Assembly (NCBI GenBank): GCA_035549075.1
Contig: DASZRT010000151.1
Span: 26,693 to 90,692, forward strand
Origin: Polyangia bacterium
GTDB lineage: Bacteria; Myxococcota_A; Polyangia; Fen-1088
Direction: 5' to 3'
Length of the DNA stretch: 64,000 nucleotides
Positions 3,165-28,395 of the stretch are shown piece by piece. The stretch's first letter is position 1. Each line of letters begins with the position of its first letter. A program made the position numbers and the translations under genes. The notes under the pieces were generated by a model. It was not told the origin of the DNA, did no database searches, and saw nothing but the letters and a program-made list of their open reading frames with translations.

Positions 3165-3188
3165 GGCCGCTCCAAAATAACCCGTCCG

Positions 3189-7836: not shown

Positions 7837-8595
7837 GTGCACCCCGCGCTGCGAACCACCGCGCACCGCCCCTGGCCGCTGCCGCGCGGGCCGTGGCGCA
7901 TGCGGCAGAGCTGGCGCGATCTCTTGTTCGCGCACTGGCCCGTGCCGGCGTCGCGCCTTCAACCGCTCGTCCCGCCCGGGGTCGCGATTCAAGAGCACGA
8001 CGGCACGTCCTGGGTCGGCGTCGTTCCCTTCCGTATGGCGGGCGTGGCGGCGCGCCCGCTGCCCGACGTCCCTGGGCTGTCGGCGTTCCCCGAGCTCAAC
8101 CTGCGCCTCTACGTCGAGGTCGCGGGACGCGCGGGCGTCTGGTTCGTGAGCCTCGACGCCGCGAGCCGCGCCGCCGTCTGGGCCGCGCGCCGCTTCTTCC
8201 ACCTGCCCTACTTCCACGCCGACATGACCGTCCGAAACCAAGGCATCCGCGTCGAGTACCGGAGCGTGCGGCGAGACGTCGCAGGCCCCCGTGTTGCGTT
8301 CGTTGGCTCGTACGGACCGACCTCGACCGTGTTCGAAGCGCGTCGCGGATCGCTCGAGCACTTTCTCACCGAACGTTATTGCCTCTTCGCGCGCGCACCC
8401 GACGGAACGTTGTTGCGCGCCGACATTCACCACGCGCCGTGGCCGATGCAAACGGCGGAAGCCGAGATCGTCGAGAACACGATCGCCGCTGGTCAGGGGA
8501 TCTCCGTACCGCTGGGGCCTCCCGCGCTGCTGCACTTCAGCCGTCGGCTCGACGTCGTCAACTGGCTGCCGGTGCCAGCGGCTGCGGCGGATTGA
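7837..8595 (+). CDS. DUF2071 (YqjF-like) family protein
   Basis: The 252-aa protein has characteristic WRDLLFAHWPV and LRLYVE motifs; coding-like composition. Confidence 0.7.
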   Translation: MHPALRTTAHRPWPLPRGPWRMRQSWRDLLFAHWPVPASRLQPLVPPGVAIQEHDGTSWVGVVPFRMAGVAARPLPDVPGLSAFPELNLRLYVEVAGRAGVWFVSLDAASRAAVWAARRFFHLPYFHADMTVRNQGIRVEYRSVRRDVAGPRVAFVGSYGPTSTVFEARRGSLEHFLTERYCLFARAPDGTLLRADIHHAPWPMQTAEAEIVENTIAAGQGISVPLGPPALLHFSRRLDVVNWLPVPAAAAD

Positions 8596-8628
8596 CGCAG
8601 GCTGATCGGACAATCGAACGGATTGGGC

Positions 8629-8643
8629 TGCACAAACTGTGCA
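8629..8643. promoter_or_regulatory. Perfect inverted repeat TGCACA-AAC-TGTGCA about 115 nt upstream of the LuxR-type regulator gene; candidate operator
   Basis: 15-nt palindrome in the 8596-8757 intergenic region. Confidence 0.3.
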
Positions 8644-8757
8644 GACCAGCTTGTTCCGCCTGCGCCCGCCACGCGTAAACACCAGAAATCACGCGGCGCG
8701 CTGGCGTGGCCGTCATGGAACACCGCTTGCTGAACGTAGCGGCGGGGGGACCTGACG

Positions 8758-9003
8758 ATGACCGTGACCAACGTGATTTTCGACCCAGCGCCTGTGCCTG
8801 CCGCCGCACCGACCGAGCCGCCCGAGCCGCCGATGCTCCTCCGGCCGCTCAGCCCACGTGAGAGCCAGATCGTTCAAATGCTCGATCAAGGCCGAACGCC
8901 GAAGGAAGTCGCCTTCGAGCTCGGCATCGCCAACGCGACGGTGCGGGTCCTGCTGTCGCGCGCGGTGAAGAAGGGCAGCCGCCCGCGCCGGGTTACCCGG
9001 TAA
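8758..9003 (+). CDS. Small LuxR/GerE-type HTH transcriptional regulator (81 aa)
   Basis: LSPRESQIVQMLDQGRTPKEVAFELGIANATVRVLLSRAVKK matches the LuxR C-terminal HTH. The 3' end overlaps the convergent cysK by 11 bp. Confidence 0.7.
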   Translation: MTVTNVIFDPAPVPAAAPTEPPEPPMLLRPLSPRESQIVQMLDQGRTPKEVAFELGIANATVRVLLSRAVKKGSRPRRVTR

Positions 9004-9928
9004 CGCGGCGGGCGAGGTCGGCGAAGACGGCGTTGTTCGCGTAGCGCTCGCCGCCATCCGGCAGCATGACGACGATGCGCTTGCCCCGCAGCTCGGGGCG
9101 CGCCGCGAGCGAGAGCGCGGCGTGCAGCGCGCCGCCGCTCGACATACCAGCCGAGATGCCCTCGCGACGCGCGAGGGAAAGCTGCGCGCGTACGGCCTCT
9201 TCCTCGGTGACGGCGACGACCTCGTCGATGACGGCGCGGTTGAGGATCTCGGGGACGAAGCCGGCGCCCAGGCCAGGCAGGTGGTGCGGCCCGGCCGCGC
9301 GGCCCGACAGCACGGCCGCGCCCGCGGGCTCGACGGCGACGACGCGAACGCCCGGCTTGCGGGCCTTGAGCACCTCGCCGACGCCCGTGATCGTGCCGCC
9401 CGTGCCGACGCCCGCGACGAAGACGTCGACGTCGCCGCCCGTGTCGGCCCAGATCTCTTCGGCCGTCGTGCGCCGGTGAACCTCGGCGTTCGCGGGGTTT
9501 CGGAACTGCTGCAGCATGACCGCGCCCGGCGTCGCGGCGACGAGCTCTTCGGCCTTCTTGACGGCCTCGCGCATGAGCGAGCCCGGCGTGAAGACGATGG
9601 TGGCGCCGAGCATGCGCAGGAAGCCGACGCGCTCTTGCGAGATGTGCTCGGGCATCGTGAGCGTGAGGGGGTAGCCCTTGGCGGCGGCGACGAACGCCAG
9701 CGCGATGCCGGTGTTGCCGCTCGTCGGCTCGACGAGCGCCGCGCCCGGCTTCAGCACGCCGCGCTTCTCGGCGTCTTCGATGAGCGCGGCGCCCACGCGA
9801 TCCTTGACGCTGCCGCACGGGTTGCGCGCCTCGAGCTTCACGAGGACGCGCGCGCCGCGCGTGTCGAGGCGGCGCAGCTCGACGAGCGGCGTGCGGCCGA
9901 CCGACTGGACGACGTCCGAGAAGAGCAT
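8993..9928 (-). CDS. cysK: Cysteine synthase A (O-acetylserine sulfhydrylase)
   Basis: PLP-lysine motif SVKDR, GNTG glycine loop, GTGGTITG; 311 aa. Confidence 0.95.
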   Translation of the reverse strand: MLFSDVVQSVGRTPLVELRRLDTRGARVLVKLEARNPCGSVKDRVGAALIEDAEKRGVLKPGAALVEPTSGNTGIALAFVAAAKGYPLTLTMPEHISQERVGFLRMLGATIVFTPGSLMREAVKKAEELVAATPGAVMLQQFRNPANAEVHRRTTAEEIWADTGGDVDVFVAGVGTGGTITGVGEVLKARKPGVRVVAVEPAGAAVLSGRAAGPHHLPGLGAGFVPEILNRAVIDEVVAVTEEEAVRAQLSLARREGISAGMSSGGALHAALSLAARPELRGKRIVVMLPDGGERYANNAVFADLARRVTG

Positions 9929-10561: not shown

Positions 10562-10682
10562 GGTGACGGGCGTCATTCCCGCGAAATAGCTCAGAATTCC
10601 TCAGGGCGCCTTCGCTGCATCGGCCAGCGATTCCGTGCCTGGTACGCCAAGGGCCATCGTCTATGTCTCCCGTACGGAGGTG

Positions 10683-12458
10683 ATGATGTCCCGAGGAATC
10701 ACGTCCACCTGCGTCGGTCTTGGCGTCGCCTTGGCCCTCGCTGGGTGCACCGGTACGATAGGCGGCTCGCCCGGCGCGGGTCGGCAGCCCGGCCAGAACG
10801 GCGGCGGTCCCGGCAGCGGCGGCACCGTTGGCTCGACGGGGGCTGGCGGAACGATCGCCGGCGCCGGTGGCACCATCGGGACGGGCTCGGGCGGTGGGGC
10901 CCCGGCGTCGTGCTCGGCGGCCGCGCCCGATCCGGGCGACACGCCCCTCGCGCGCCTCACGCAGGAGCAGTACCTCAACACGCTTCACGACCTCTTCGGC
11001 AACATCAACCTCACCTCGATCTTCCCCACGTCGCAGAGCGCCTCGCAGTTCGGGCTCGCGCAGGCCGACGTCGACGGCTCCGACCTCGACAAGTACCAGC
11101 GCGCCGCCGAGCAAGTGGCCGCCGCCGTCGTCGCCGACAAGAACGCGATGGCCAAGATCGCGCCGTGCACGGCGACCGCGGCCGCCGATCAGCGCACGTG
11201 CGCGAAGACCTTCTTGCAAAACTTCGGCACGAAGATCTACCGCGCGCCCATCGACGCCGCCGACTTCGATCGCCACCTCGCGCTCTACGACGCGGGCTCG
11301 CCCAACGGCGGCTACGCGCACGGCATCGAGCTCATGTTGCGCGGCATGATGCAGGCGCCGCGCTTCCTCTACCGCGTCGAGCTCGGCACGGCCGAGGCCG
11401 TGGGCCCGACCGCCGTGAAGCTCTCGGGCTACGAGCTCGCCTCGCGCCTGTCCTACACGCTGTGGAGCACGGGCCCCGACGACGCGCTCTTCGCGGCGGC
11501 CGCGGGCGGCAAGCTCGCGACGGCGGCCGACGCGCAGGCGCAGCTCACGCGCATGCTGGCCGATCCGCGCGGCGCGACGGCCGTGCGCCACTTCCTCGAG
11601 TCGTGGATCCACCTGCCCGATCTCGACAACGTCGCCAAGGACGGGACGCTCTACCCCGAGTGGAACGACGACGTCCGCGGCGCGATGACGACGCAGGCGC
11701 AGAAGTTCTTCGACGACGTGCTCGCGACCAAGGGCGGCACCGTCGCGTCGCTGCTGACGTCGAAGACGGTGTTCGCCAACGGCAAGCTCGCGCCGATCTA
11801 TTCGGCGCAGGCGACGACCTTCCCGACCGACGGCAGCTTCACGAGCAGCGACAAGACCGACGGCACGGCCTCGGGCCTGCTGACGCTGCCGGCGTTCCTC
11901 GCGACGCAGGCCAAGGCCAGCGAGAGCTCGCCGATCTACCGCGGCAAGTTCGTGCGCGAGCAGCTCTTCTGCCAGGAGCTGCCGTCGCCGCCCGCCAACG
12001 TCCCGCAGGCTCCCATGGTGACCCCGGGCGCGTCGACGCGCGACCGCCTCAAGCAGCACGAGAGCGACATGACCTGCGCCACGTGCCACACCCTCATCGA
12101 TCCCGTGGGCCTCGGCTTCGAGCACTACGACGCCATCGGCCGCTACCGGACCGTTGACGGCGGTAAGCCCGTGGACTCGACCGGCAAGCTCACGGGCACC
12201 GACGTCGACGGCGCGTTCGACGGCGTGAGCCAGCTGGGCACGATGATCGCCGCCAGCGCGCAGGTTCAATCGTGTGTCGCCAAGCAGTGGTTCCGCTACT
12301 CGATGGGCCGTGGCGAGCAGGACGCCGACAGCTGCTCGATCAACGCGCTCACGCAAGCCTTCACGGGCGCGGGCGCCGACCTGCGCACGCTGCCCGCGGC
12401 CATCGTCGCGACGCCCGCGTTCCTCTACCGCCGTCCGCTCGCGCAAGGGAGCAACTGA
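10683..12458 (+). CDS. DUF1592/DUF1588/DUF1585-family lipoprotein (so-called Planctomycete cytochrome-c-like) with a single CxxCH-like motif (CATCH)
   Basis: GGAGG RBS before ATGATG at 10683. Lipobox LALAGC. Gly-rich linker. C-terminal CQELPSPP...MTCATCHTLIDPVGLGFEHYDAIGRYR is characteristic of the DUF1585/DUF1588 region. Confidence 0.85.
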   Translation: MMSRGITSTCVGLGVALALAGCTGTIGGSPGAGRQPGQNGGGPGSGGTVGSTGAGGTIAGAGGTIGTGSGGGAPASCSAAAPDPGDTPLARLTQEQYLNTLHDLFGNINLTSIFPTSQSASQFGLAQADVDGSDLDKYQRAAEQVAAAVVADKNAMAKIAPCTATAAADQRTCAKTFLQNFGTKIYRAPIDAADFDRHLALYDAGSPNGGYAHGIELMLRGMMQAPRFLYRVELGTAEAVGPTAVKLSGYELASRLSYTLWSTGPDDALFAAAAGGKLATAADAQAQLTRMLADPRGATAVRHFLESWIHLPDLDNVAKDGTLYPEWNDDVRGAMTTQAQKFFDDVLATKGGTVASLLTSKTVFANGKLAPIYSAQATTFPTDGSFTSSDKTDGTASGLLTLPAFLATQAKASESSPIYRGKFVREQLFCQELPSPPANVPQAPMVTPGASTRDRLKQHESDMTCATCHTLIDPVGLGFEHYDAIGRYRTVDGGKPVDSTGKLTGTDVDGAFDGVSQLGTMIAASAQVQSCVAKQWFRYSMGRGEQDADSCSINALTQAFTGAGADLRTLPAAIVATPAFLYRRPLAQGSN

Positions 12459-13819
12459 TGAGCGCCACCGACACCCGCACCAAATTTTCGCGCCGTCGTC
12501 TGCTGGGTGGCCTCGGCGGCCTCACCGTGGCGCTGACGGCGCCCATCTGGAAGCCGGCGACGACGTTCGGTGCCGCCGCCAAGCCCGCCAAGCGCTTCAT
12601 CGGCGTGTTCTCGGCGAACGGCACGATCCCGCAGTCGTTCTTCCCCAACACGACGGCGCCCGAGTCGACGCTCGCGCTCGGCCCCGAGTGCCGCATCCTC
12701 GCGCCCATGGCCGCCCACAAGAGCCAGATGCTCGTGCTCAAGGGCGTCGACATGGTGTCGACGATCGGCGCCAACCACCCGGGCGGCCCGCACATGAAGG
12801 GCCCGGGCGCGATGCTCACGGGCGGCACGCTGCTGCCCGGCCCGTTCACGGGCTCCGAAGGCCCAGCTGGCTACGCGAACTGCATGTCGGTCGACCAGCT
12901 CATCGCGACCCGCCTTGGCACGACGACGAAGTTCCCGTCGCTCGAGTTCGGCGTGCGCATCCAGGGCCAAGAGCCGCTGCGCTACATCTCGTACCGCGGC
13001 GCCAGCATGCCCAACACGGCCGTCGACGATCCGTGGCAGCTCTACAGCCGCATGTTCGCCAACGCGGGCATGACCGACGCGCAGCTCGCGCGCACGATGA
13101 CCGAGCGCCAGAGCGTGCTCGACTTCTTGAAGGCCGACCTCACGTCGCTCGAGGCGCGCTTCTCGGCGAGCGATCGCGCGCGCCTCGACGCGCACCTCAC
13201 GGGCATCCGCACGATCGAGCAGCAGATGAAGGCGGGCACGCAAGCGTGCGCGACGCCGACGCTGCCGGCGCGCATCGACCCCGAGGTCATGGAGAACTTC
13301 CCGACCATCGCGAAGATCCAGATGGACCTCATGCTGCTCGCGCTCACGTGCGGCATGACCAACGTCGCGACGTTCATGTTCGCCAACGCCGACAGCTGGC
13401 AGTACTACCCGTGGATCGGCATCAACGAAGAGCACCACACGATGTCGCACGGCGACGACAACGACGCCGCGAACGTCGAGAAGCTCGTGCAGATCAACAT
13501 CTGGCACGCGCAGCAGATCAACTACATGCTCGACGGCCTCGCGGCGCACAACGAGGCGGACGGCAGCACGATGCTCGACAACTCGCTGCTGCTGTGGGGC
13601 AACGAGCTCGGCAAGGGCAACACGCACACCTACAAGGACATCCCCTGGATGCTCGCGGGCGGCGTGGGCGGCTCGATGCGCATGGGCCGCTTCCTCCAGT
13701 ACAACGCCCAGCCCCACAACAACCTGCTCGTCTCCGTCGCCAACGCCTTCGGCCTCAGCGACGTGAAGTCCTTCGGCGACCAGTCCGTCTGCACCGGCGC
13801 CTTGGGCAACCTCACCTGA
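12458..13819 (+). CDS. DUF1552-family protein with a twin-arginine signal (obligate partner of DUF1592)
   Basis: TGATG stop/start overlap with the upstream gene. SRRRLLGGLGGLTVALTA Tat motif; 453 aa. Confidence 0.85.
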   Translation: MSATDTRTKFSRRRLLGGLGGLTVALTAPIWKPATTFGAAAKPAKRFIGVFSANGTIPQSFFPNTTAPESTLALGPECRILAPMAAHKSQMLVLKGVDMVSTIGANHPGGPHMKGPGAMLTGGTLLPGPFTGSEGPAGYANCMSVDQLIATRLGTTTKFPSLEFGVRIQGQEPLRYISYRGASMPNTAVDDPWQLYSRMFANAGMTDAQLARTMTERQSVLDFLKADLTSLEARFSASDRARLDAHLTGIRTIEQQMKAGTQACATPTLPARIDPEVMENFPTIAKIQMDLMLLALTCGMTNVATFMFANADSWQYYPWIGINEEHHTMSHGDDNDAANVEKLVQINIWHAQQINYMLDGLAAHNEADGSTMLDNSLLLWGNELGKGNTHTYKDIPWMLAGGVGGSMRMGRFLQYNAQPHNNLLVSVANAFGLSDVKSFGDQSVCTGALGNLT

Positions 13820-18043: not shown

Positions 18044-19594
18044 ATGGACGACCAGAGCTTGCCCGCCGACGACGAGGAGGCCACCCTCCCCGCCGGAGCC
18101 AAGCTCGGAAAATACCAGGTCGTCCGCTTGCTCGGCGCGGGCGGCATGGGCGCGGTTTACGAGGCCGTACACACCGAGATCGGCAAGCGCGTCGCCGTCA
18201 AGACGCTCGCGCCGCAGGTCGCGGCGATCCCGGGCGCGCGGCAAAGATTTTTGCGCGAGGCGCAGCTCACCTCGCGCCTGCGCCACCCCAACATCGTCGA
18301 TCTCTCCGACATGGGCACGGAGGGGCGCGTCGCTTACCTCGTCATGGAGCTGCTCGCGGGCGAGGATCTCGCGGCGCGCCTCGAGCGCACGGGTCCGATG
18401 GTGCCGCGCGAGCTCGTCGACCTGACGCTGCCCGTGTGCTCGGCGCTCGTCGCCGCGCACGAAGCCGGCATCGTCCATCGCGACCTCAAGCCGCAGAACA
18501 TCTTCCTCGCCAACCAGCCGCAGGGCGTGCAGCCGAAGGTGCTCGACTTCGGCATCTCGAAGAGCGCCGACACCGACGCGTCGTCGTCGCTCACGAGCAC
18601 GGGCTCGGTCATCGGCACGCCGCACTACCTCGCGCCCGAGCAGATCAAAGACGCGCGCACGGCGAGCGCCGCGAGCGACCAGTACGCGATCGGCGTGATC
18701 CTCTACAAGTGCCTCACGGGCGACAACCCGTTCGAGGGCGACAGCATCTTCGCCGTGCTGCAGGCGATCGTCACGCAGCGGGCCGTGCCCGTGGGCGAGC
18801 GGCGCGCCGGGCTGCCGCCGGGCCTCGACGCCGTCGTCGAGCGCGCCATGAACCCGCTGCCGTGGGAGCGTTACCCGTCGGTACGCGAGCTCGGGCGCGC
18901 GCTGATTCCGTACGCGTCGCCCAAGGCGCGCATGATCTGGGAGGACACGTTCGCGGCGGGCGCGGCGACGGCCGAGCCGCCGCCCGAGGCGCGGCAGAGC
19001 CACACGATGCCCATGCCGACGCCGCAGCCGAGCGTCGTGCGCAAGCCGCAGTCGTTCTCGACGGCGAAGTCGCGGCTCGACTCGGGCACGTTGCGTCCGT
19101 CGGGAGACCTCGGGCTCGAGACGGACGTCGATGGCCTCGCGCCGTCGCGCTCGCGCCCGCGCATGATCGCGGGCATCGTCGCCGGCGCCGGCATCGCCGT
19201 CGCGGGGTTCTTCTTGTTTGCGCGCGGGTCGGGCGCGCCACCGCCGACGAGCGAGACGGTGAAGCCCGTCGCCGCGAGCGCCGCGCCGGCTCCGGCTCCG
19301 CCCGTGACGCCACCACCCGCACCGGCCGCCGTCGTGCCGGCGACGCCACCACCCGCCGCCGTCGCGCCGGCGACGCCGAAAGAAGAGCCGAAGGCGGAGC
19401 CCGAGAAGGCCGCCGTCGAACCGAAGATCGAAGAAAAGGTCGAAAAGAACGAGCCCGCGAGGTCGGCGCCGTCTTCGTCGTCGCACAAGCACGCGACGCC
19501 GCGCCACGCGCCGGCGCGCGGGAAGACCGAAGCGCCGACGACCGCACCGGCACGCCCGGCTCTGAACCCGAACGGCTCGCCCGTCATCGACTGA
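18044..19594 (+). CDS. Ser/Thr protein kinase with a C-terminal TM segment and a Pro/Ala-rich extracytoplasmic tail
   Basis: Kinase subdomains: GAGGMGAVYEA, VAVK, HRDLKPQNIFL, DFGISK, GTPHYLAPE. TM segment IAGIVAGAGIAVAGFFLF. Confidence 0.9.
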   Translation: MDDQSLPADDEEATLPAGAKLGKYQVVRLLGAGGMGAVYEAVHTEIGKRVAVKTLAPQVAAIPGARQRFLREAQLTSRLRHPNIVDLSDMGTEGRVAYLVMELLAGEDLAARLERTGPMVPRELVDLTLPVCSALVAAHEAGIVHRDLKPQNIFLANQPQGVQPKVLDFGISKSADTDASSSLTSTGSVIGTPHYLAPEQIKDARTASAASDQYAIGVILYKCLTGDNPFEGDSIFAVLQAIVTQRAVPVGERRAGLPPGLDAVVERAMNPLPWERYPSVRELGRALIPYASPKARMIWEDTFAAGAATAEPPPEARQSHTMPMPTPQPSVVRKPQSFSTAKSRLDSGTLRPSGDLGLETDVDGLAPSRSRPRMIAGIVAGAGIAVAGFFLFARGSGAPPPTSETVKPVAASAAPAPAPPVTPPPAPAAVVPATPPPAAVAPATPKEEPKAEPEKAAVEPKIEEKVEKNEPARSAPSSSSHKHATPRHAPARGKTEAPTTAPARPALNPNGSPVID

Positions 19595-19604
19595 CGCCCG
19601 TCAG
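19591..19604. terminator. Short hairpin CTGACG-cc-CGTCAG containing the stop codons of both convergent genes
   Basis: Palindrome spanning TGA (19592-19594) and TCA (19601-19603). Confidence 0.25.
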
Positions 19605-20995
19605 GGCGCGCAGCTCGGCGCTGGTGAAGGCGCCGCCATGAGCGCCGCGTGCGCCTTGGCGTCGGCGTCGGCCGGCGCGAGCCCGTCACCGAGCTGTGCG
19701 GCGACGATCGTGCGCCACACGAGCTGAAGGTCCGTCGCCGTGCCCATCGGACAGAGCGTCTTCGCGCGCGCGGCGATGGCGTCCCACTCCATCTTGAGCA
19801 AGCCGGCGGCGTCCAGCTTCTGTTCGACGCGCTCGCTGTAGGTCTTCACCTCGAACGCGAGGTATTCGGGGAAGAGCTGACCGTCGCCCGCGTACGATCG
19901 ATACACGGCGCCGAGCGGCTCGGGATCACCGGGGCAGCCGTCGAGCTTGGCGTCGACGTATCCTGGCTGGATCGTCCCCGACGCGTGACCGACGGTGACG
20001 GCCGCGTCGTAGGCCGAAGGCGCGGGGCACTTCGCGAGCGCGGGCAGCGGGTGCCAGCCCGAGGCGTCGTTGCCGGCGATCGTGCAGTCGAGGCAGCCGT
20101 CGACGGCGAGCCCCCAGCGCGCCATGCCCTCGAACACGTTGTCGCGCAGCGTGACGCCCGAGATCGTCGTCGTCTTGCCGATGACGTGCAGCCCCGCCGT
20201 GAGGCCCGTGCCCAGGTAGCGCGGCGACGTCGCCGTCACGCGGTTGCCCGAGACGACGACGCCCGTGTGATCGGCCACGATGGCGTCGCCGACGTTGATG
20301 CCCGAGAACGCGCTCGTCTTCTCGAGCGTGACGACGTTGTCGCTGATCGTCGTGCCCGCGCCGCCGTAGTAGACGATGCCGACGGCCGAGGGATCGTGGA
20401 TCTGGTTGCGCGCGATCGTCGTGTGCGAGCAGGCGATCGAGACGCCGTCGGTCCAGTGTCCGCCGGCGTCGTGCGGGCGCGACGCGCTCTCGACGACGTT
20501 GTCGGTGACGATCGACGAGTCGCACGGCTCGATGAGGTGCAGGTGCGTCCAGCCGGGCGCGTCGGTGAACGAGCAGCCGACGATCGAGTAGCCGTCGCCG
20601 GGGCCGATCTCGACGAGCGCCTGCGAGTCCTGCGTGCCCAGCACGCGTCGGTTGCCGTCGAAGCGCACCGACGCGAGGTGAATGTCGCTGCCCGAGCCGC
20701 GCACGGCGCCGCTCGAGCTGATGGGGAAGTCGGCGCCGAGACGAATCGTCGCCATCTCCGTCGGGTCGGAAGGCAGGCCCGCCGTGAAGAGCGTGAGCCC
20801 TTGGCGCAAGACGAGCAGCTGCGACAGCACGATCTCGGCGCGCGGGCACAAGAGCACGGTCTTGCGCGCGTCGATCGCCGCCTGCAGATCGGCGCCCGTG
20901 CCCGTCGCGAGGCAGTCGGTGCCGATGTACTTCGTGTCGCCGTGGCACGCGGGCACGAGCGTCGCGAGCGCAAAGACGAAGACCGCGAGCTTCAT
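19601..20995 (-). CDS. Secreted right-handed parallel beta-helix (pectin-lyase-fold) protein
   Basis: The start was re-set to an internal ATG, giving MKLAVFVFALATLVPACHG (signal peptide). The beta-helix repeats are GxxxxxNxIxxN-like (SIVGCSFTDA, TIARNQIHD, TISDNVVT, VVSGNRVTA, TLRDNVFEG). The upstream 88 codons of the track ORF are Arg-rich and overlap the upstream gene. Confidence 0.8.
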   Translation of the reverse strand: MKLAVFVFALATLVPACHGDTKYIGTDCLATGTGADLQAAIDARKTVLLCPRAEIVLSQLLVLRQGLTLFTAGLPSDPTEMATIRLGADFPISSSGAVRGSGSDIHLASVRFDGNRRVLGTQDSQALVEIGPGDGYSIVGCSFTDAPGWTHLHLIEPCDSSIVTDNVVESASRPHDAGGHWTDGVSIACSHTTIARNQIHDPSAVGIVYYGGAGTTISDNVVTLEKTSAFSGINVGDAIVADHTGVVVSGNRVTATSPRYLGTGLTAGLHVIGKTTTISGVTLRDNVFEGMARWGLAVDGCLDCTIAGNDASGWHPLPALAKCPAPSAYDAAVTVGHASGTIQPGYVDAKLDGCPGDPEPLGAVYRSYAGDGQLFPEYLAFEVKTYSERVEQKLDAAGLLKMEWDAIAARAKTLCPMGTATDLQLVWRTIVAAQLGDGLAPADADAKAHAALMAAPSPAPSCAP

Positions 20996-21936
20996 GGCAG
21001 CGGCACCGCGAGGCCGAGCGCCGCCGTGACCGACACCGGCGCGGGCGAGAACACCGTGCTCTGCGCGCCCTCGATCGCGAACGTCGGGCGCTCGAACGCG
21101 GCGGCGCCCTCGATCGTCGCGACGAGCGCGAGGTGCGACGACAGCCGGCGCTCGGCGCCCGCGCCGAGCCACGCCGTCTCCCACCACGCCGTCGCGCCGT
21201 TGGTCTCGGCGACGCCGACGCCGTTCGCGCGCGTGCGGTCGACGTCGCCGCCCGCGCACAGGCGCGCGCGCCAGCGGCCGCGCTCGGTCCAGCCGCAGAG
21301 GCCCGCGCCGAACGAAAGCAATTCGAAATCGCCGCCCGCGCCCGCGCCACCGACGGTGGCGCGCGTGCTCGCCGGGAAGATCGTGCCACGCGCGACGAAC
21401 GCGAGGTGCTCACCGCCGAGCGTCGCCTCGACGCGCGCGCCGAGCGCAGCGTGCGGCAACGCGCCGAGCGCCGCGACGCCCGACGCCGCGAGCGCGCCGC
21501 GCACATTCATCGGAGGCGGGGACGCGGGCGCTTCGATCACGGGCGCGAAGCCACCGCCCGCCTGACCGCGTTCGATCGCTGGCGCGTCGTCGGCGGCCGA
21601 GTGCTCCTCGACGGTCACGAGCGCCGCGATGACGAGCCCCAGCGTCGCCCACCGCTCGGCCGGCGCGTCGTTGGCGCGGAACGACAGATCGCGACGTACG
21701 GGCGCGCGCGCGGGCTCGCTGGGATCCGCCAGCTCGACGGTCGCCGCGCCGTCACCCGCGGACGCGACGCGCGCTTGCCAGCACGAGGCGCCGCGATCGG
21801 CGGACTCGGGCAGAACGATGCGGCAACGGCCGACGCCGAGGATCTCGCTGCAACGTCGCTCGAGCGCGGCGCGCGGCGCGTCGGCGGCGACTGGTCCGGC
21901 GATCTCGACGGCTACACAGGCCTGGGGCGCGACCAT
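20992..21936 (-). CDS. Hypothetical membrane-anchored protein (314 aa) cotranscribed with ECF sigma/FecR
   Basis: ATG at 21936 with a GGAGAGG RBS, 12 nt after the FecR stop. One TM segment (WATLGLVIAALVTV). The C-terminus is beta-strand-like (alternating hydrophobics). Confidence 0.55.
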   Translation of the reverse strand: MVAPQACVAVEIAGPVAADAPRAALERRCSEILGVGRCRIVLPESADRGASCWQARVASAGDGAATVELADPSEPARAPVRRDLSFRANDAPAERWATLGLVIAALVTVEEHSAADDAPAIERGQAGGGFAPVIEAPASPPPMNVRGALAASGVAALGALPHAALGARVEATLGGEHLAFVARGTIFPASTRATVGGAGAGGDFELLSFGAGLCGWTERGRWRARLCAGGDVDRTRANGVGVAETNGATAWWETAWLGAGAERRLSSHLALVATIEGAAAFERPTFAIEGAQSTVFSPAPVSVTAALGLAVPLP

Positions 21937-21947
21937 CCTCTCCAGGA

Positions 21948-22985
21948 TTATCGCGGATGCACCGGCGTGCCGCCAACCTCGCCCTCGATGCCGGCGCGAA
22001 CGGCGCCGAGGTTGGCGCGCGCTTGTTCCGACAGCGGTCCGCGCGGCGCGCGCGCGAGCAGCTGTTGGTAGAGGCGAGCCGCCGCGGCGCCGCGGCCCGC
22101 GCGCTGCGCCTCGAGCGCCTGTTGGAAGAGCGCGTTCTGCGCGCGGAGGTCGCTCGGACGATCCACCGGACGCTCGATCACGCGCGGCGCGACGGCGATC
22201 TTGCGCACGTGCGCCGCTTCGACGGGCGCCGGCGCCGCGGCCACGGGCGCCTCGCAGCCCCACGTCTGCCCCGGCGCGACCATGTGGGTCTCGCCGCTCG
22301 CGAACACGGCGACGAGGCCCTCCTGCACGCGCACGCACGTCGCGGGCACCGAGCCCGGGTGCAGCTCGACGTCGAACTCGGTGCCGCGCACCTGCACGTC
22401 GGCGTCGGGCGTGAGGACATGAAAGCGCTGGCCCGCGTGCAGCTTCGTCACCTTGAGGTGCGCGCGGCCGCGCAGCAGGTTCACGGCCTCGATCGCCGGC
22501 GCGCCCGCGACCTCGGTGTTGGCGGCGACGACGGTGCCGACGCGCGACGCGGGCGCGAGCGTGAGCGTCGCCGTGTTGGCGAGCTGCACGCGCGTCGCCT
22601 CGTCGGCCGGCGCCTCGAGCGCGCCCGCGCCGAGCCCCGAGGCCTCGCCCGTGCGCAGCGTGCGGCGCGCGACGCCGTCCTCGAGCCAGAGCGTGCCGTC
22701 GAGCACCGCGACCGTCGCCGTGCGCGACGGCGCGACGCGCGCGCCCGGCGCGACGAGAATGATGGCGGCCGCCGCGCTCGAGACCGCGGCGAGCGTGAGC
22801 GCCGTGCGGCGCACGAAGCGCAGGCGGCGCGTGCGCACGTGAACGCGCGCGGCGTGCGCGCGCAGCTGCGGCACGACGCGCGCGCGGCGCGATGAACGAT
22901 CTCGCGCCGGCGGGCCCCCCGCCGGCAACGCATCGACGTAACGCGCGAGCGTCACGCGCGTGTCCTCCCCCTCACCCGCGTCCAT
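21948..22985 (-). CDS. FecR-family anti-sigma factor (TM + FecR domain)
   Basis: TM segment LTLAAVSSAAAAIILVA. FecR signature GQRFHVLTPDADVQVRGTEFDVEL. It overlaps the ECF sigma stop by 14 bp. Confidence 0.85.
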   Translation of the reverse strand: MDAGEGEDTRVTLARYVDALPAGGPPARDRSSRRARVVPQLRAHAARVHVRTRRLRFVRRTALTLAAVSSAAAAIILVAPGARVAPSRTATVAVLDGTLWLEDGVARRTLRTGEASGLGAGALEAPADEATRVQLANTATLTLAPASRVGTVVAANTEVAGAPAIEAVNLLRGRAHLKVTKLHAGQRFHVLTPDADVQVRGTEFDVELHPGSVPATCVRVQEGLVAVFASGETHMVAPGQTWGCEAPVAAAPAPVEAAHVRKIAVAPRVIERPVDRPSDLRAQNALFQQALEAQRAGRGAAAARLYQQLLARAPRGPLSEQARANLGAVRAGIEGEVGGTPVHPR

Positions 22986-23619
22986 TCTGCTTCTCCTTTT
23001 TCGCGATGAAATCTAGGACGTCTTTGCGCCCGCGCACGAGGCGCGACTGAGCGGCGGCGACGGTGACGCCCGTGAGCGACGCGATCTCCGTGAGCTCGTG
23101 CCCCATGATGTCGTGCAGGATCACGGCCTCGGCGCGCGTGCGGTTGACGGTCGCGAGCGCGCCCAGCAGGCGCTCGACGCGGCGGCGCGTCTCGGCGAGG
23201 CGCTCCGGCGTGCGTCCCTCCTCGGCGACGAGCTCGAGCGCCGCCGGACCCGCGGCGCGGTCGAACAGCTTCCGCTCGCGGGTGCGCGCGCGCATCGTGT
23301 CGATCGCCAGGTTCTGCGTGACGAGCGTGGCCCACGAGCGCAGGCTGCAGTTGTTGGCGAAGCGGTTCTGGACGATCGACGTGATGACGCGCTCGAGCGC
23401 CTGCTGCGCGAGATCGTCGCGCTCGAGATCGCCCGGCCCCATCAACCGGTAGAGCACGGCGTCGACGACGTCCTCGACGCGGTCGTAGACGACCTCGGCC
23501 GCCCACGCCTCGCCCGACGCGAGCGCGCGGCAGAGCTCGGCGTCGGTGAGCGAGCTGCCGCGCGGCGCGCCCGCCGCGCCGGCTGGCCCGCTCGGCGGAC
23601 GTGCCTTGAACAAGGCCAT
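22972..23619 (-). CDS. ECF (group IV) sigma-70 factor
   Basis: An internal ATG at 23619 gives a 215-aa protein with region 2 (VYDRVEDVVDAVLYRL..DLAQQALERV) and region 4 (ILHDIMGHELTEIASLTGVTVAAAQSRLVRGRKDV). Confidence 0.85.
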   Translation of the reverse strand: MALFKARPPSGPAGAAGAPRGSSLTDAELCRALASGEAWAAEVVYDRVEDVVDAVLYRLMGPGDLERDDLAQQALERVITSIVQNRFANNCSLRSWATLVTQNLAIDTMRARTRERKLFDRAAGPAALELVAEEGRTPERLAETRRRVERLLGALATVNRTRAEAVILHDIMGHELTEIASLTGVTVAAAQSRLVRGRKDVLDFIAKKEKQNGRG

Positions 23620-23711
23620 ATCAGATACGATAGACGCCCCGGCGGCGCCGGGCAGGCAGGAAATCATGGCGTCAAAATCGTGGCGCGCGGCGGCGGCGTG
23701 CGTTGTCACGA

Positions 23712-26351
23712 TCATGGGCCCGCGATCCCCAGCGTGTTGGTGGTCCCCAGCTTCTTGACGCCCTGGTTCGGCGTGCCCGTGACCACGGACCAGGTGAAGC
23801 CGTCGAGCGGCTTCGAGGCGCGCTCGACGACGTAGACGCCGCCCTTCTGCGTGTCGAACGTGAGCGTCACGCTCGACGACGACGTCACGTCCGTGCTCGT
23901 CGCCGTCGCGCCCGCGCCGACGATCTTGCGCACCTTCACCGCCGTCGCGCCCCACGGGTTGATGACCGTCGCCGAGCCGCCGAGCTGGCTCAGGAGCCCG
24001 ACGTACTTGATGTCGCCGCCTTCGCGCTCGCTCGTGACGAGGAAGCCGCCGCGCGCCGCGAGCGTGAATCGTGTCACGAGGCCCGTGTCCTTCGGCAGCG
24101 CCGGGAACACGCGGATCCTGCCGTCGTAGCTCTGCAGCAGCGACTCGTTCATCACGCACAGGTGCACGCCCAAGTATTCGAACACCCCGTTCGTGTTGTT
24201 GGTCATGCCGTTCGGGTAGCTCTGGTAGTTCTTCAGCATCGTCTTCATGCCGGCGTTCGCGTCGTCGCCGAGGCCGAGGCGCGCGGCCTGGATCGCGTCG
24301 TTCGACCACACGTTGCCGTAGGGAAAAGGCCGCGCCTTCCAGCTCGCGAGCGCCATCGCGTAGTCGGGCGCGTCGATGCCCGTGACGTCGTAGGGCCACA
24401 GCAGCTCGCCCACGATGTTCTCGTTGTTGCGCGTCTGCGAGATCGGCGGCTCGTGCGGCAGGTACTTCGTGCCGTCGTTCGGGTACGGCGTGAGGTTGTC
24501 GAGCACGTCCTGCCACTGCGGCCGCAGATCGGCGTCGACGCCCAGCGACTGGCTGGTCTTGATGGCGACGGGGAAGAGCTGCCGCACGGCCGCGAGATCG
24601 GTGAGCGCGTTCTTCACGTGCCAGTACGTCTCGTGCGCGTTCGACGACAGCATGACGTACTTGCCCGAGCCCGCGTCCTTCGTGAGCTTCTTCACGTAGA
24701 ACTTCGCGACGTCGCGCATGAAGGGGTACGCCGTGTTCTTCAAATAGTCGGCGTCGCCCGTGTACGCGAACTGCGCGTACATGTTCATGGCGGCCTCGGT
24801 GGCCGTCGTGAAGATGTCGTTCGTGTATTCGGTGTTGCCGTCGGCGTTGCCGTTCCAGCCCATGGTCTCGGGCACCCAGAGGCCGTCGAAGCCGAACCGG
24901 CTCTTGGTGAAAGCTTCGAGCGCGGGGACGTTGCGGCTGTACAGCTTGTTGAACGGCGCCATGACGTCGGCGTGGTTCGACGCGAGGAACGAGTTGTAGA
25001 CGTCGCGCTGGTTCCAATACCAGTAGCCGTTGCTCCACTTCGTCTTGTCGGCCGTCGCGCGCTCGACGCCGTTGATGAAGTGGAACGGGTAGTTGCCGAA
25101 CCCGCCCGCGGCGATCATCTCCGTCGCGAGGAAATACACGTTCTCGAGGTAATCGGCGTCGCCGGCGGCGTTCGAGTATTGAACGAACGAGCGGCGCCAG
25201 AACGCGTGCCAGAAGTCCTCGTAACCAGCGAACGTCGTCGCGTAGGTGGCCTGCTTCGTGCGCGCGAGCGCCGCCTTCGCCTCGCCGACCGAGTCGTTGC
25301 CCGCGGCGTTCAGGCGCGACGAGCACGCGATCCAGATCGTGTAGCTCGCCGAAGGCGTGATCGTGAGGCGCACGGCGCTCGCGCTGGGCGACGACGTCGT
25401 GAAGGCCGCGCCCTCGACGGTGGCGGCGAGCGTGTAGCCGAACTCGTCGGGATCGGCCTGCCCGCGCGACAGGCCCGCGCTGTCGGCCTCGGCGTAGGTC
25501 GTGACCTTCTTCCACGTGTCGAGGTTGCGGACGTTCCAGTTCGACAGCGTCGAGAGATCCCACAGCGAGAGATCGACCGTCGCGCTCGTGACGCCCGCGC
25601 GGCCGTCGACGACGTGGATGCCGATGACCTCTGAATTCGGCGCGCCGATGACCGTGACGGTTCGGGCATCTTTGCTGGCTTCGCTGCCGTACTTCGTCGA
25701 CACGACGCCGTCGTACAGCGCGAGCCGCTGCTGGAACGCGCCGCCGCCCGAATCAATCGCCGGGTTGGTGTTGAACGCCACGAGGCCGCCCGCGTAGGCG
25801 GATTGCTCGGAGATGTCGACGTTCGACACCTGCATCGAAAGGCCGTTCTCGCTCCACACCATCGCGCCCGTGCGGCCGTTGCCGACGGTGAGGCCGTAGA
25901 GCGAGTTCGTGTTCGGCTTGGCGTAGACGAGGTCGTGCTTGGGCAGGTACGCCGCGTAGTCGACGTTGAGCACGCCCTTCGCCGTGTCGAACGCGTGGCC
26001 CGTGGGCCCGTCGACGACCGTCGTCGGCGGCGCGCTCGTGGTGCCGCCTGAGCCGCCGGTTGCGGTCGCACCACCGGTCGCAGACCCGCCCGCGCCGCCG
26101 ATCGACGACACGCCGCCAGATCCGCCGGCATCGGACGTTCCGCCCGTCGCCGTCGCGCCTGCGTCTCCACCCGTCGCCGTCACGCCGCCGGTGCCTCCCG
26201 ACGTGCCCGCTACCGCGCCGCCCGTACCCGCTGAACCCGAGCTACCGCCCGTCGCATTCGGCCCACCATGACCGCTCGACGAGCACGCGCCCAGCGCCAG
26301 CGCCAACACGGCGCCCGCTCGAAACGTTCGGCCAGAAAAGAAAGTCCACAC
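23712..26351 (-). CDS. Large secreted lipoprotein (879 aa) with a Gly/Thr/Ser linker and a putative glycoside-hydrolase-like catalytic region; function unassigned
   Basis: Lipobox LALALGAC, about 100 aa of GGT/GGS linker, then a long aromatic-rich domain (NGYWYWNQRDVYNSF, FGFDGLWVPETMGWNGN) suggestive of a carbohydrate-active enzyme. Confidence 0.7.
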   Translation of the reverse strand: MWTFFSGRTFRAGAVLALALGACSSSGHGGPNATGGSSGSAGTGGAVAGTSGGTGGVTATGGDAGATATGGTSDAGGSGGVSSIGGAGGSATGGATATGGSGGTTSAPPTTVVDGPTGHAFDTAKGVLNVDYAAYLPKHDLVYAKPNTNSLYGLTVGNGRTGAMVWSENGLSMQVSNVDISEQSAYAGGLVAFNTNPAIDSGGGAFQQRLALYDGVVSTKYGSEASKDARTVTVIGAPNSEVIGIHVVDGRAGVTSATVDLSLWDLSTLSNWNVRNLDTWKKVTTYAEADSAGLSRGQADPDEFGYTLAATVEGAAFTTSSPSASAVRLTITPSASYTIWIACSSRLNAAGNDSVGEAKAALARTKQATYATTFAGYEDFWHAFWRRSFVQYSNAAGDADYLENVYFLATEMIAAGGFGNYPFHFINGVERATADKTKWSNGYWYWNQRDVYNSFLASNHADVMAPFNKLYSRNVPALEAFTKSRFGFDGLWVPETMGWNGNADGNTEYTNDIFTTATEAAMNMYAQFAYTGDADYLKNTAYPFMRDVAKFYVKKLTKDAGSGKYVMLSSNAHETYWHVKNALTDLAAVRQLFPVAIKTSQSLGVDADLRPQWQDVLDNLTPYPNDGTKYLPHEPPISQTRNNENIVGELLWPYDVTGIDAPDYAMALASWKARPFPYGNVWSNDAIQAARLGLGDDANAGMKTMLKNYQSYPNGMTNNTNGVFEYLGVHLCVMNESLLQSYDGRIRVFPALPKDTGLVTRFTLAARGGFLVTSEREGGDIKYVGLLSQLGGSATVINPWGATAVKVRKIVGAGATATSTDVTSSSSVTLTFDTQKGGVYVVERASKPLDGFTWSVVTGTPNQGVKKLGTTNTLGIAGP

Positions 26352-26440
26352 GCGTCGTTACCGTCGAGTCCGTTCGCTGGATAGACGACGCGGACGACCC
26401 GCGGCAGGCACGAAACGAGGCCTGTTTCCCGCGGTTTTAC

Positions 26441-27376
26441 TCAGTCTTCGAGCTGCACGCGCAACGCGTAGACCAGATACGTGCGGGCGAGTGGGCCTGT
26501 CCACAGCCACGGCGGCAACAGCTCGGGGGTGCCGACCTCGGCGAGGATCGGGCGCACGACGGTGGGGTTCGCCGCGTAGTAGGCGGCGCCCTTCGCGACG
26601 ACGTCGTCGAGGACGCGGGCGAGGTCGGCGTCGGGAGGCAGCTCGTCGAGCGGATAGAAGTTCGACGACACGACGTCGCTCGCGAAGAGCGCGGTGCCAC
26701 CTTCGGCCGTGAGGCTCACGAGCGTCGACAGGTGCGTGCGCAGCAGCGCGTGGCGCGCGGCCTCGAGAGTGGGGTGGCGATCGCCGAGCGCCTCGCGCAG
26801 CGCGAACGCCATCTGCGTCATCACGCACGCCGAGACGACGACGTCGAACGGCCCGGGCAGCCGCGCGATGAGCCCGTCGAGGGTGGCGCCCGCGACCTCT
26901 TCCAGCTCGGCGGCGTCGGGCGGCGCGCGCCGCCAGCGCGCGAGGCGGCGCGCCGACAAACCCGAGAGATCGACGTCGCCGTGACGATGCAGCCGCGCGC
27001 GTACGGCGGCTTCGGGCCGCGCGACGGCGCGCGCGAGCGCCTTGCCGTCGAGGTCGACGAGGTGGATCTCCGCGAACGCGGCGTCGCCGGCGAGCGCCGC
27101 GAGATCGAGATCGTTGCACGCGCCGGCGCCGAGCACGCACAACCGCCCGCCGGGCCGCGCGAGCTGCGCGCGCACGGCCGCCGTGAAGCGCGCGCGGTGC
27201 GCGGCGTAGAGCTGCCAGTCGTCGATGGTCGCAGTCTGCGCGCGCGGGCTCAGAACTGCGACCAAAACCGCCACGTGCCGACGGTGCTCATCGGGACCTG
27301 CGGCGAGTGGCCGAGCCCCGTCGTGGGGCACCACACGACGGGGAAGCCCGGCAGGCAGCCTTGATACTCGACGCAC
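26441..27376 (-). CDS. Putative class I SAM-dependent methyltransferase-like protein; start uncertain
   Basis: CVLGAGACNDLDL (motif I-like), EIHLVDLD (motif II-like), DVVVSACVMTQM (motif IV-like). The first ATG of the ORF overlaps the upstream esterase gene by 126 nt, so the true start is probably internal or non-ATG. Confidence 0.45.
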   Translation of the reverse strand: MRRVSRLPAGLPRRVVPHDGARPLAAGPDEHRRHVAVLVAVLSPRAQTATIDDWQLYAAHRARFTAAVRAQLARPGGRLCVLGAGACNDLDLAALAGDAAFAEIHLVDLDGKALARAVARPEAAVRARLHRHGDVDLSGLSARRLARWRRAPPDAAELEEVAGATLDGLIARLPGPFDVVVSACVMTQMAFALREALGDRHPTLEAARHALLRTHLSTLVSLTAEGGTALFASDVVSSNFYPLDELPPDADLARVLDDVVAKGAAYYAANPTVVRPILAEVGTPELLPPWLWTGPLARTYLVYALRVQLED

Positions 27377-28395
27377 ACCGACGGCGTCTTCGGATCACCG
27401 TCCCAATCGTAGGGCTTGGTGTCGGTGCCGCACTTGTTGATGGCGAGGATCCGGTCGCGCGCCATCTCGCCGCCCGCGATCGGGTTCATCGTGTCGGTCG
27501 TGTCGTGCATCATCATCGCGGCGACCGGCCCGCTGCACGCAGGGATGCCCGGCGGCAAGCCGCCCGTCGTGTTCGCCTGCGCCCGCAGCGTCACGCTGCC
27601 GCGCGCGCAGCCGATCAAGTTCGACAGCCACGAGCCGCTGCTGTGGCCGATCAAAAAGACGCGCGCCTCGTCGACGCACGTGAGGCCCTCGACGTCCTTC
27701 AGGACCTGGTCGTAGTACGGCACCTCGGGCGAATTCGGGTTCATTGTGTCGAAGCAGCCGCCGCCGTAGAGCATGCCGCTGTTCTGCGAGTCCTTGGAGC
27801 GCAACGCGACGAGGATCGCGTCGCCCTTCGTCGCCTGCTCCATCGGGTACGGAATGCTGCCGTCGCAGCCGTGCGCGAGGAACACGAGCGGGTACGCGCG
27901 CGTCATGTCGTAGCCCGTCGGGAGGCGGAGATCGTAGACCCGCGTCGAATTCGTGACCGTGTGGCGCACGTAGCTCGCGAACGCCTGCGCCGGCACCTTG
28001 TTGCAACCGAGGCTGGGCATGGGCGGCGGCTTCGTCATGAGGCCGCCGTCGCCAGCGCCGCCTTCGGGCGCGCCGCCGTCGGAGCCGTCGACGCCCGCGT
28101 CGGCCGTCGCGCCGCCAGCTCCGCCCGGAGCGCCGGCGACGGACGAGCCTCCGGTGCCACCGCCTTCGGTCATCTGACCGCCCGCGCTCGAGGTCGAACC
28201 GCCGCCGCCCGAACCGCCGGGGGCCGCCGTCGCGCCGCCGGCTCCGCCGATGCCGTTCTTGGGCGCTTCACTGGCGGCGCACGCCGCCAGCGAGAGGACG
28301 AGGACCGCGAACGACCAAGGAAAGCCACCAAAATGAAACGACTTCGAGGGGGGCACGCCAGGGTCTAGACGACGGAAAAGCCGCCCGGCAGGCAT
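27250..28395 (-). CDS. Secreted alpha/beta-hydrolase: PHB-depolymerase/feruloyl-esterase-family lipoprotein with a Gly-rich linker
   Basis: Lipobox LSLAAC, GGxGG linker, VFLAHGCDGS oxyanion region, and a LIGHSSGSWL GxSxG nucleophile. Confidence 0.8.
   Translation of the reverse strand: MPAGRLFRRLDPGVPPSKSFHFGGFPWSFAVLVLSLAACAASEAPKNGIGGAGGATAAPGGSGGGGSTSSAGGQMTEGGGTGGSSVAGAPGGAGGATADAGVDGSDGGAPEGGAGDGGLMTKPPPMPSLGCNKVPAQAFASYVRHTVTNSTRVYDLRLPTGYDMTRAYPLVFLAHGCDGSIPYPMEQATKGDAILVALRSKDSQNSGMLYGGGCFDTMNPNSPEVPYYDQVLKDVEGLTCVDEARVFLIGHSSGSWLSNLIGCARGSVTLRAQANTTGGLPPGIPACSGPVAAMMMHDTTDTMNPIAGGEMARDRILAINKCGTDTKPYDWDGDPKTPSVCVEYQGCLPGFPVVWCPTTGLGHSPQVPMSTVGTWRFWSQF

Follow-up and report, generated by a model that had tools for sequence, protein, structure and literature searches.

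A putative TonB-independent envelope-signalling module in Polyangia built from a sigma factor, a FecR-type anti-sigma factor and a small outer-membrane-type barrel

The DNA analysed here, referred to as the window, is a 64,000-nucleotide stretch from a Polyangia bacterium (contig DASZRT010000151.1, positions 26,693 to 90,692) with a G+C content of about 71%. Its minus strand carries a compact cassette of four genes encoding, in order of transcription, an extracytoplasmic function (ECF) sigma factor, a FecR-domain anti-sigma factor, a 314-residue protein with a predicted outer-membrane barrel and a beta-helix lipoprotein (Table 1). The sigma and FecR genes overlap by 14 nt, 11 nt separate the FecR gene from the barrel gene, and the barrel and beta-helix genes overlap by 4 nt (ATGA). 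An initial annotation of this DNA had described the same four co-directional genes with the same two overlaps and a gap of 12 nt, which is corrected here to 11 nt. The four genes are presumably co-transcribed, and the beta-helix gene appears to be translationally coupled to the barrel gene via the ATGA.

The product of the first gene is an ECF (group 4) sigma factor consisting of regions 2 and 4 only. It matches the Pfam models Sigma70_r2 (E = 7e-09) and Sigma70_r4_2 (E = 1.7e-09) and scores above the cutoff of the NCBIfam model TIGR02937 (52.5 bits, cutoff 42.9). Its nearest relatives of solved structure are SigE, SigW and CnrH, and its best NCBIfam matches are of the PRK12513, SigE, SigW and SigM types, with no FecI model among the 25 listed. 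The second protein matches the FecR domain PF04773 over residues 124-225 (E = 2e-13, 51 bits, cutoff 24) and is predicted to span the membrane once, through a hydrophobic segment at about residues 64-84. Its N-terminus would be short and cytoplasmic, its FecR domain would lie in the periplasm, and the C-terminus forms a hairpin resembling a tetratricopeptide repeat (TPR). Compared with PDB sequences, it gave no meaningful match. In an alignment of 14 orthologues, the conserved cytoplasmic segment is short (about 45-60 residues), the motif VRGTxFDV is invariant in the FecR domain, a TCV...WGC cysteine pair is kept and is followed by a variable Pro/Ala stretch, and the conserved tail reads SDLRxQNxLFQxAL...GPL..QAR.NL. 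The self-cleavage site of FoxR lies at Gly-191/Thr-192 (PMC11637429), and the Gly-Thr of VRGTxFDV is taken to be its equivalent, a correspondence drawn without an alignment to FoxR.

The fourth protein matches Beta_helix (PF13229; E = 1.2e-13, 51.4 bits, cutoff 25.9) as well as the TIGR03804 repeat, and its AlphaFold2 model reached a predicted local distance difference test score (pLDDT) of 92.7 and a predicted template modelling score of 0.90. A lipoprotein signal precedes a right-handed parallel beta-helix (residues about 30-345) and a C-terminal helical bundle (residues 360-454). By sequence inspection, the lipobox of the family has the consensus L-x-G-C, with C17 invariant after L-x-G/A, and reads LVPAC in the window. 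Foldseek neighbours of the model are the mannuronan C-5 epimerases AlgE4/6, GH28 polygalacturonases, phage tailspikes and RbmB (E 1e-6 to 1e-4) as well as alginate lyases, with a probability of 1.0 for AlgE4/6, the GH28 enzymes and the tailspikes. In a profile alignment to 1k5c, xTDG is the sole GH28 motif aligned in the family; the catalytic DD and GHG are absent, with VG and FSG in their places. A GH28 hydrolase identity is thereby ruled out, and any catalysis is putative. AlgE-type proteins are the top Foldseek matches (E 1e-6), and the beta-helix family keeps, at the sequence level, an invariant His in an RPHD motif; in the beta-helices of AlgE and AlgG the catalytic motif is of the DPH(D/E) type and includes Tyr, Asp and His. 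From its model, the protein is probably polysaccharide-binding or -modifying, with no assignable activity. Related beta-helix lipoproteins of about 350-395 residues (P0134-P0146) are paralogous to it, about 50% identical, and lack the C-terminal helical bundle.

These assignments bear out much of the initial annotation. Its ECF sigma/FecR pair stands, with TIGR02937 and PF04773 both matched above cutoff, and so does the pectin-lyase-type fold of the fourth protein, upheld by PF13229, the model and its Foldseek neighbours. The signal peptide it gave to this protein is present, but as a lipoprotein signal rather than a plain one. For the third protein, described there as a single-spanning membrane protein with a beta-rich C-terminal domain, the hydrophobic helix is found again, and the beta-rich part is modelled as an eight-stranded outer-membrane barrel.

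The AlphaFold2 model of this 314-residue protein was built on 59 family sequences and has a pLDDT of 88.3. It comprises an N-terminal domain, a long hydrophobic helix, a linker and a C-terminal half that is modelled, with two methods in agreement, as an eight-stranded antiparallel barrel of the OmpA/OmpX type. On the strength of this fold, the system would have an outer-membrane component. Four nearly invariant cysteines lie in the N-domain (C7, C29, C38 and C52) and two in the barrel (C214 and C227), and the odd/even hydrophobicity pattern is clear in only three of the eight strands. The family C-terminus reads ...LALGLAVPF, and 54 of the 59 members end in F, mostly as VPF; a C-terminal pattern of this kind is the beta-signal recognised by the barrel-assembly machinery. 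The window's own copy (20992-21000, minus strand) ends in AVPLP and is thus without the canonical terminal aromatic residue.

The cassette is conserved. Using the 314-residue protein, which is 100% identical to a hypothetical protein in a Polyangia metagenome-assembled genome and has 63 relatives at 90% clustering from such genomes and metagenome proteins, 22 related loci were collected. All related Polyangia loci that are covered far enough show the order sigma-FecR-barrel, with identity of the barrel protein down to 32-38%, and the sigma orthologues are 58-77% identical across all loci. Since this order recurs while the flanking genes vary, the arrangement is not due to chance. Outside the most divergent clade, every locus has the beta-helix gene directly after the barrel gene; in L019 of that clade an unrelated opposite-strand gene occupies its position, and L021 apparently also lacks it, its contig stopping 1.3 kb downstream. 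Because it is absent from the most divergent clade, the beta-helix gene is an accessory part: the core consists of three genes and the beta-helix gene is a frequent fourth. Among the variable neighbours, GH95-like genes adjoin the cassette in seven loci (L001, L002, L007, L008, L013, L014 and L018) and methyltransferase-like or esterase genes in three, methyltransferase-like orthologues lying near it in L004, L008 and L013.

The barrel belongs to a far larger family. A profile of it, searched against 1.84 billion representative proteins, returned 4,843 matches at E<=1e-3, 881 at E<=1e-10 and only 15 at E<=1e-30. Clustered at 50% identity, the family numbers about 4,800 groups, and neither Pfam nor NCBIfam has a model for it. 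Distant relatives are 300-370 residues long and have the same C-terminal barrel. Their linker is Pro-rich, their hydrophobic helix (AAALIxALxIDP) is shorter, their N-domain keeps two cysteines (AP..CP and SC..LA), and they start with a signal peptide of the normal, cleavable kind. The window clade and the distant group are colinear over residues 22-314 (profile-profile comparison, probability 99.9). All eight wider-family barrel genes with readable surroundings (from L023, L024, L026 with two cassettes, L028, L029, L030 and L031) sit immediately upstream of an ECF sigma gene, which is followed by genes for one or two proteins of 240-300 residues without families. That all eight adjoin an ECF sigma gene speaks for the barrel being a regulator and not mere cargo.

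Three observations on this wider family may be added. Two paralogous cassettes of L026, each with a barrel, an ECF sigma and two family-less proteins, lie back to back and divergent (2463-9262). The fourth cassette gene of L024 (8660-9562) encodes a Kunitz/BPTI protease-inhibitor domain (E = 1.4e-20), a hint that periplasmic proteolysis helps to control such modules. P0319, a 590-residue protein from a 2.15-Mb contig, combines Sigma70_r2 and Sigma70_r4_2 with a match to the barrel-family profile (E = 1.2e-13) and is either a natural barrel-sigma fusion or two merged gene calls. Literature searches found no account of an ECF/anti-sigma/small-barrel module or of the barrel family, which is also absent from the main text of the ECF reclassification paper (PMC7826278). 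The family thus exposed is large and unannotated, made up of small outer-membrane barrels with a periplasmic N-domain, and it suggests a widespread TonB-independent wiring of the outer membrane to sigma/anti-sigma pairs in Myxococcota.

A genuinely odd feature of the module is that the outer-membrane-type barrel protein of the window clade has no N-terminal Sec signal peptide. The protein begins with MxAPQAC right behind a GGAG-type ribosome site, and 13 of 20 loci have a stop codon in frame only 2-4 codons upstream, leaving no room for another start; the conserved ribosome site and these stops rule out a hidden signal peptide or a wrong start. Fusion of FecR and barrel by read-through or frameshift, which would make the N-domain periplasmic, is excluded because the spacing between the two genes is 11, 28, 6, 39 or -4 nt among loci, so that the frames differ. 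In MAFFT alignments the N-terminal APxxC pairs with the AP..C after the first strand of the signal-peptide-bearing relatives, and the internal helix, homologous to the helix of these relatives, is 5 residues longer in the window clade. Its longest uncharged run is 14 residues, compared with a median of 10 in the relatives, and is flanked by Arg on the N side and EEH on the C side. If the barrel reaches the outer membrane, the sole coherent topology is one in which the helix acts as an internal signal or signal-anchor and the four-Cys domain is cytoplasmic. Tentatively, and with more doubt than confidence, we propose that the internal helix some 95 residues into the protein exports the barrel, while the N-domain stays in the cytoplasm and helps to control the ECF sigma factor. 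Were the helix uncleaved, one polypeptide would join cytoplasm, inner membrane and outer membrane; were it cleaved, each exported barrel would yield a stoichiometric cytoplasmic fragment. Either way, transcription would respond directly to the export or assembly of an outer-membrane protein. We know of no such biogenesis route or regulatory principle for bacterial outer-membrane proteins, and it is a concrete puzzle for outer-membrane biogenesis that a protein in other respects so similar to a substrate of the barrel-assembly machinery should lack a signal peptide.

A cytoplasmic N-domain could also be read as a metal- or redox-sensing co-anti-sigma element, in which case the primary signal would be intracellular or redox in nature rather than a polymer. 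Such an element, compatible with envelope signalling by the rest of the cassette, would complement the short cytoplasmic part of the FecR protein (about 60 residues, of which the conserved segment is short). The four invariant cysteines, set against the two-Cys pattern of the periplasmic relatives, fit this idea, as do the missing signal peptide and the charge pattern of the sole hydrophobic segment, positive on its N side and acidic on its C side. Thousands of relatives, however, have the corresponding domain in the periplasm, and the N-domain resembles no anti-sigma domain or solved structure searched: it has no Pfam or NCBIfam match, a joint N-domain profile found nothing among PDB sequences at E<=10, and two fold searches with the full 314-residue model were dominated by the barrel and gave no N-domain fold. 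We therefore regard a metal or redox sensor as quite unlikely.

Common to all loci upstream of the sigma gene is the motif (A/T-rich)-TGCCTGCC-N14/15-CGTCTA(AT), and CGTC-type -10 elements are typical of ECF promoters. The end of CGTCTA lies 10-11 nt from the sigma start codon across the loci compared (L001, L003, L004, L007, L008, L013 and L014), so close that the sigma mRNA would be near-leaderless. The exact 14-nt core matches three times in 128 kb (both strands of the window) and not once in 30 random sequences, and the looser pattern GCCTGNC-N12-20-CGTCTA likewise has 3 matches in the window, against 0.05 expected. All three exact copies are on the minus strand, intergenic and correctly oriented just upstream of a gene, namely the sigma gene, a GH95-like gene and an esterase-like gene. 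The initial annotation had suspected that the secreted enzymes encoded upstream of the cassette form a regulon with it and had proposed a search for the ECF promoter motif in front of them (23712..28395); two of the three exact copies lie there, which supports this idea. The motif is also found in front of the GH95-like genes of L001, L008 and L013 and, in L007, in front of a gene for a DUF1549/1585-like lipoprotein. A degenerate fourth copy precedes a DUF1592-type gene in the window; it gains credibility from the good copies found at the orthologous genes of L004 and L006. L004 further shows tandem copies upstream of its sigma gene (5958-5985 and 6257-6283), the first of which resembles the GH95-gene promoters of L008 and L013 and is probably a relic after loss of the GH95-like gene there.

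The inferred regulon members are mostly candidate secreted enzymes. The GH95-like protein matches Glyco_hydro_95_cat (E = 1.9e-16), DUF5703_N (1.1e-08) and GH95_C (2.6e-06), and lipoboxes are apparent on inspection both there (LALGAC) and in the esterase (LSLAAC). The esterase matches NF050058 (E = 6.4e-07), below the curated cutoff. Its start most likely is GTG 28356 rather than the ATG at 28395 of the initial annotation (open reading frame 27250..28395), since that ATG (28393-28395) lies inside the promoter -35 element. The methyltransferase-like gene begins within the 3' end of the esterase gene, with which it probably forms an operon; its product matches Methyltransf_12 at E = 0.0073, below cutoff. 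The DUF1592-type and DUF1552 genes overlap at a TGATG junction (12455-12460), and this pair adjoins barrel/sigma cassettes in L004, L006 and L028 too. Literature searches found no account of DUF1592/DUF1552 function or of FecR-controlled glycosidases.

Table 1 Features of the sigma-FecR-barrel cassette, its promoter motif and inferred regulon members. Nucleotide positions refer to the window; residue ranges refer to the 314-aa protein.
Feature	Position	Strand	Basis or remark
ECF (group 4) sigma factor, 215 aa	22972..23619	-	Pfam and NCBIfam
FecR-domain single-pass anti-sigma factor, 345 aa	21948..22985	-	Pfam
314-aa protein with predicted barrel	20992..21936	-	AlphaFold2 model and fold searches
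N-domain, alpha/beta, four invariant Cys	residues ~1-90 (modelled 8-85)		AlphaFold2
Long hydrophobic helix ERWATLGLVIAALVTVEEHSAAE, nearly invariant	residues 92-116		AlphaFold2 and alignment
Low-confidence Pro/Ala linker	residues 117-145		AlphaFold2
Eight long strands, predicted OmpA/OmpX-type outer-membrane barrel	residues 146-313		AlphaFold2
Beta-helix lipoprotein, 464 aa	19601..20995	-	Pfam, AlphaFold2, Foldseek
Putative ECF promoter of the sigma operon, TGCCTGCC-N14-CGTCTA, exact core	23631..23658	-	CGTCTA ends 11 nt before ATG
Second putative ECF promoter copy (N15)	26382..26410	-	Motif search; GH95-like gene 30 nt downstream
Third putative ECF promoter copy (N15)	28366..28394	-	CGTCTA ends 9 nt before GTG 28356
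Degenerate fourth copy, TGCCTGGT-N14-CGTCTA, 2 mismatches, intergenic	10636..10663	+	About 22 nt upstream of DUF1592-type gene
GH95-like (alpha/alpha)6 glycosidase lipoprotein, 879 aa, inferred regulon member	23712..26351	-	Pfam
Esterase-like lipoprotein, 368 aa, inferred regulon member	27250..28356	-	Weak polyhydroxyalkanoate-depolymerase/CE1-type similarity
Methyltransferase-like gene, start uncertain (GTG 27274, TTG 27265 or further upstream)	26441..27274	-	Weak Pfam match
DUF1587/1595/1592/1588/1585 (PSD/PSCyt) lipoprotein, probable regulon member	10686..12458	+	PSD4 5e-38, PSCyt3 4e-31, others
DUF1552 (HXXSHH) protein, Tat-like signal (SRRRLL), N-terminus MSATDTRTKFSRRRLLGG	12458..13819	+	PF07586 3e-78

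A few further features of the locus deserve mention. A sigma-70-like site, TTGGCG-18-GATAAT (21947-21976, minus strand), covers the stop codon of the FecR gene, a short way upstream of the ribosome site of the barrel gene, and is the sole such site in 19300-23800 (0.0 expected). GATAAT, CTATAAT or GCTAAT recurs at the FecR stop in other loci, but the same letters also encode the conserved Pro-Arg-stop; the site could be an internal promoter from which the barrel and beta-helix genes are expressed at a basal level. A gene for a Ser/Thr protein kinase (Pkinase, E = 4.5e-49; 18044-19594, plus strand) converges on the beta-helix gene with stop codons 6 nt apart; it is absent from the related loci, and a functional link to the cassette is not supported. 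An anti-phage defence system is ruled out, with 0 PADLOC matches.

We hypothesize that the cassette is a cell-surface-signalling-like envelope module of Polyangia, a reading to which we give an even chance. The single-pass FecR-domain anti-sigma factor would hold the ECF sigma factor at the inner membrane, and its periplasmic FecR domain and TPR-like tail would communicate with an outer-membrane partner, here a small eight-stranded barrel of the large ECF-linked family in place of a TonB-dependent transducer. The co-translated beta-helix lipoprotein of most members may bind or cut polysaccharide, so that the barrel, usually together with this glycan-binding protein, would give the envelope input. 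Anti-sigma factor proteolysis would then free the sigma factor to transcribe from TGCCTGCC-N14/15-CGTCTA promoters, including that of its own operon, with the GH95-like lipoprotein, the unit of esterase and perhaps methyltransferase-like genes and probably the DUF1592/DUF1552 pair as further targets. The gene content, the folds, the conservation of the cassette and the promoter motif with its positions are what the analysis shows; the protein contacts, the ligand, the proteolytic activation and co-transcription are what we infer.

Several lines of evidence favour such a module: the domain assignments are firm, the sigma-FecR-barrel order is conserved, all eight barrel genes outside the clade adjoin an ECF sigma gene and the promoter copies are placed before genes. 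The barrel fold and the VPF beta-signal of its family point the same way, as do the likeness of the beta-helix model to polysaccharide-active enzymes and the invariant Gly-Thr that the FecR orthologues keep at the presumed self-cleavage position. Other findings weigh against it. The anti-sigma factor has no FecR_C/DUF4974 (STN-like) domain in Pfam at E<=0.1, the domain that contacts the transducer in classical signalling. The most divergent clade has no beta-helix gene, and the beta-helix family lacks the catalytic DD and GHG of GH28. The predicted outer loops of the barrel are short, so the barrel itself is unlikely to bind a ligand. Finally, because the window clade's barrel protein has no signal peptide, its N-domain would be cytoplasmic and unable to touch the periplasmic FecR domain.

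Some of the same observations could be accommodated if sigma and FecR formed a self-contained switch and the barrel and beta-helix were only co-transcribed outputs, for instance a surface enzyme and its membrane anchor. All four genes would come under the promoter in front of sigma, one clade does without the beta-helix gene, secreted lipoproteins are also found among the remaining regulon members, and the sigma-70-like site lies just before the barrel gene. The barrel gene, however, is never missing from the cassette, and in the wider family it stands beside an ECF sigma gene in eight of eight cases whatever else is nearby, which is the pattern of a regulator and not of cargo; we consider the outputs-only arrangement unlikely. 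The conserved C-terminal F of the barrel family brings to mind an assembly sentinel of the RpoE/RseA/DegS kind, in which the barrel would be a built-in reporter substrate and the exposed VPF of an unassembled barrel, recognised in the periplasm, would trigger anti-sigma factor proteolysis, perhaps via the TPR hairpin. This hairpin weakly matches the TPR of BamD/YfiO (E 0.013), and one related cassette encodes the Kunitz protease-inhibitor domain mentioned above. Yet the BamD match is far below cutoff and the TPR matches are generic, the window's copy ends in VPLP and not in F, and the genes behind the promoter motif encode catabolic-type enzymes rather than chaperones or proteases. A sentinel of this kind is thus very unlikely.

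ECF sigma factors are among the most abundant signalling devices of bacteria and, to our knowledge, most ECF groups have no known input. The window clade joins a barrel, a FecR-type anti-sigma factor and a polysaccharide-type beta-helix lipoprotein, and its promoter motif defines a mini-regulon of putative secreted enzymes. The locus thus offers a handle on substrate sensing by polymer-degrading soil Polyangia.

An ECF locus with an OmpA-type barrel has a precedent in the SigX-CfrX-CmpX-OprF locus of Pseudomonas, classified as ECF102 (PMC7826278). OprF, unlike the window barrel, carries an ordinary signal peptide and, at its C-terminus, a domain that binds peptidoglycan. Homology between the two barrel sequences is not detectable, and the SigX/OprF locus has no FecR-domain anti-sigma factor or beta-helix protein. 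By its published description only, ECF267 has three features that also occur in the window, among them a Ser/Thr kinase gene, which converges on the cassette here (PMC7826278), but this kinase is not conserved in the loci related to the window, and the main text of that paper gives no outer-membrane barrel or beta-helix partner for ECF267. Further parallels are FecI-FecR-FecA and FoxI-FoxR-FoxA of Proteobacteria, which share with the window an ECF sigma factor, an anti-sigma factor that crosses the membrane once and has its FecR domain, with a conserved Gly-Thr motif, in the periplasm, a co-encoded outer-membrane beta-barrel partner and autoregulated neighbouring target genes. In contrast to FecA and FoxA, the predicted partner in the window is an eight-stranded barrel of about 170 residues without plug, TonB box or STN signalling domain. 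No Plug or TonB_dep_Rec domain occurs among cassette or flanking genes in the window, L001, L003 and L004, in agreement with the initial annotation, which had seen no TonB-dependent transducer in the cassette. The anti-sigma factor differs from FecR and FoxR in lacking FecR_C and ending in a TPR-like hairpin, the sigma factor appears closer to SigE, SigW and CnrH than to FecI, and the putative targets are glycosidase and esterase genes rather than those of iron uptake.

In the Rcs stress system, the lipoprotein RcsF acts with OmpA/OmpC/OmpF and IgaA. The module may resemble it in that an outer-membrane lipoprotein and a barrel report envelope or surface status to an inner-membrane regulator; the Rcs output, however, is a phosphorelay and not a sigma/anti-sigma pair, and the components are not homologous. 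Polysaccharide utilisation loci of Bacteroidetes contain ECF sigma/anti-sigma pairs with SusC-like transducers. There, as proposed for the window, a glycan signal at the envelope releases an ECF sigma factor and induces adjacent genes for lipoprotein glycan-degrading enzymes. The window, which belongs to the phylum Myxococcota, class Polyangia, has no SusC/SusD pair, and its barrel is too small for transport. By analogy, the module would work like FecIRA and the ECF-controlled polysaccharide loci of Bacteroidetes, yet without a TonB-dependent transducer and without FecR_C.

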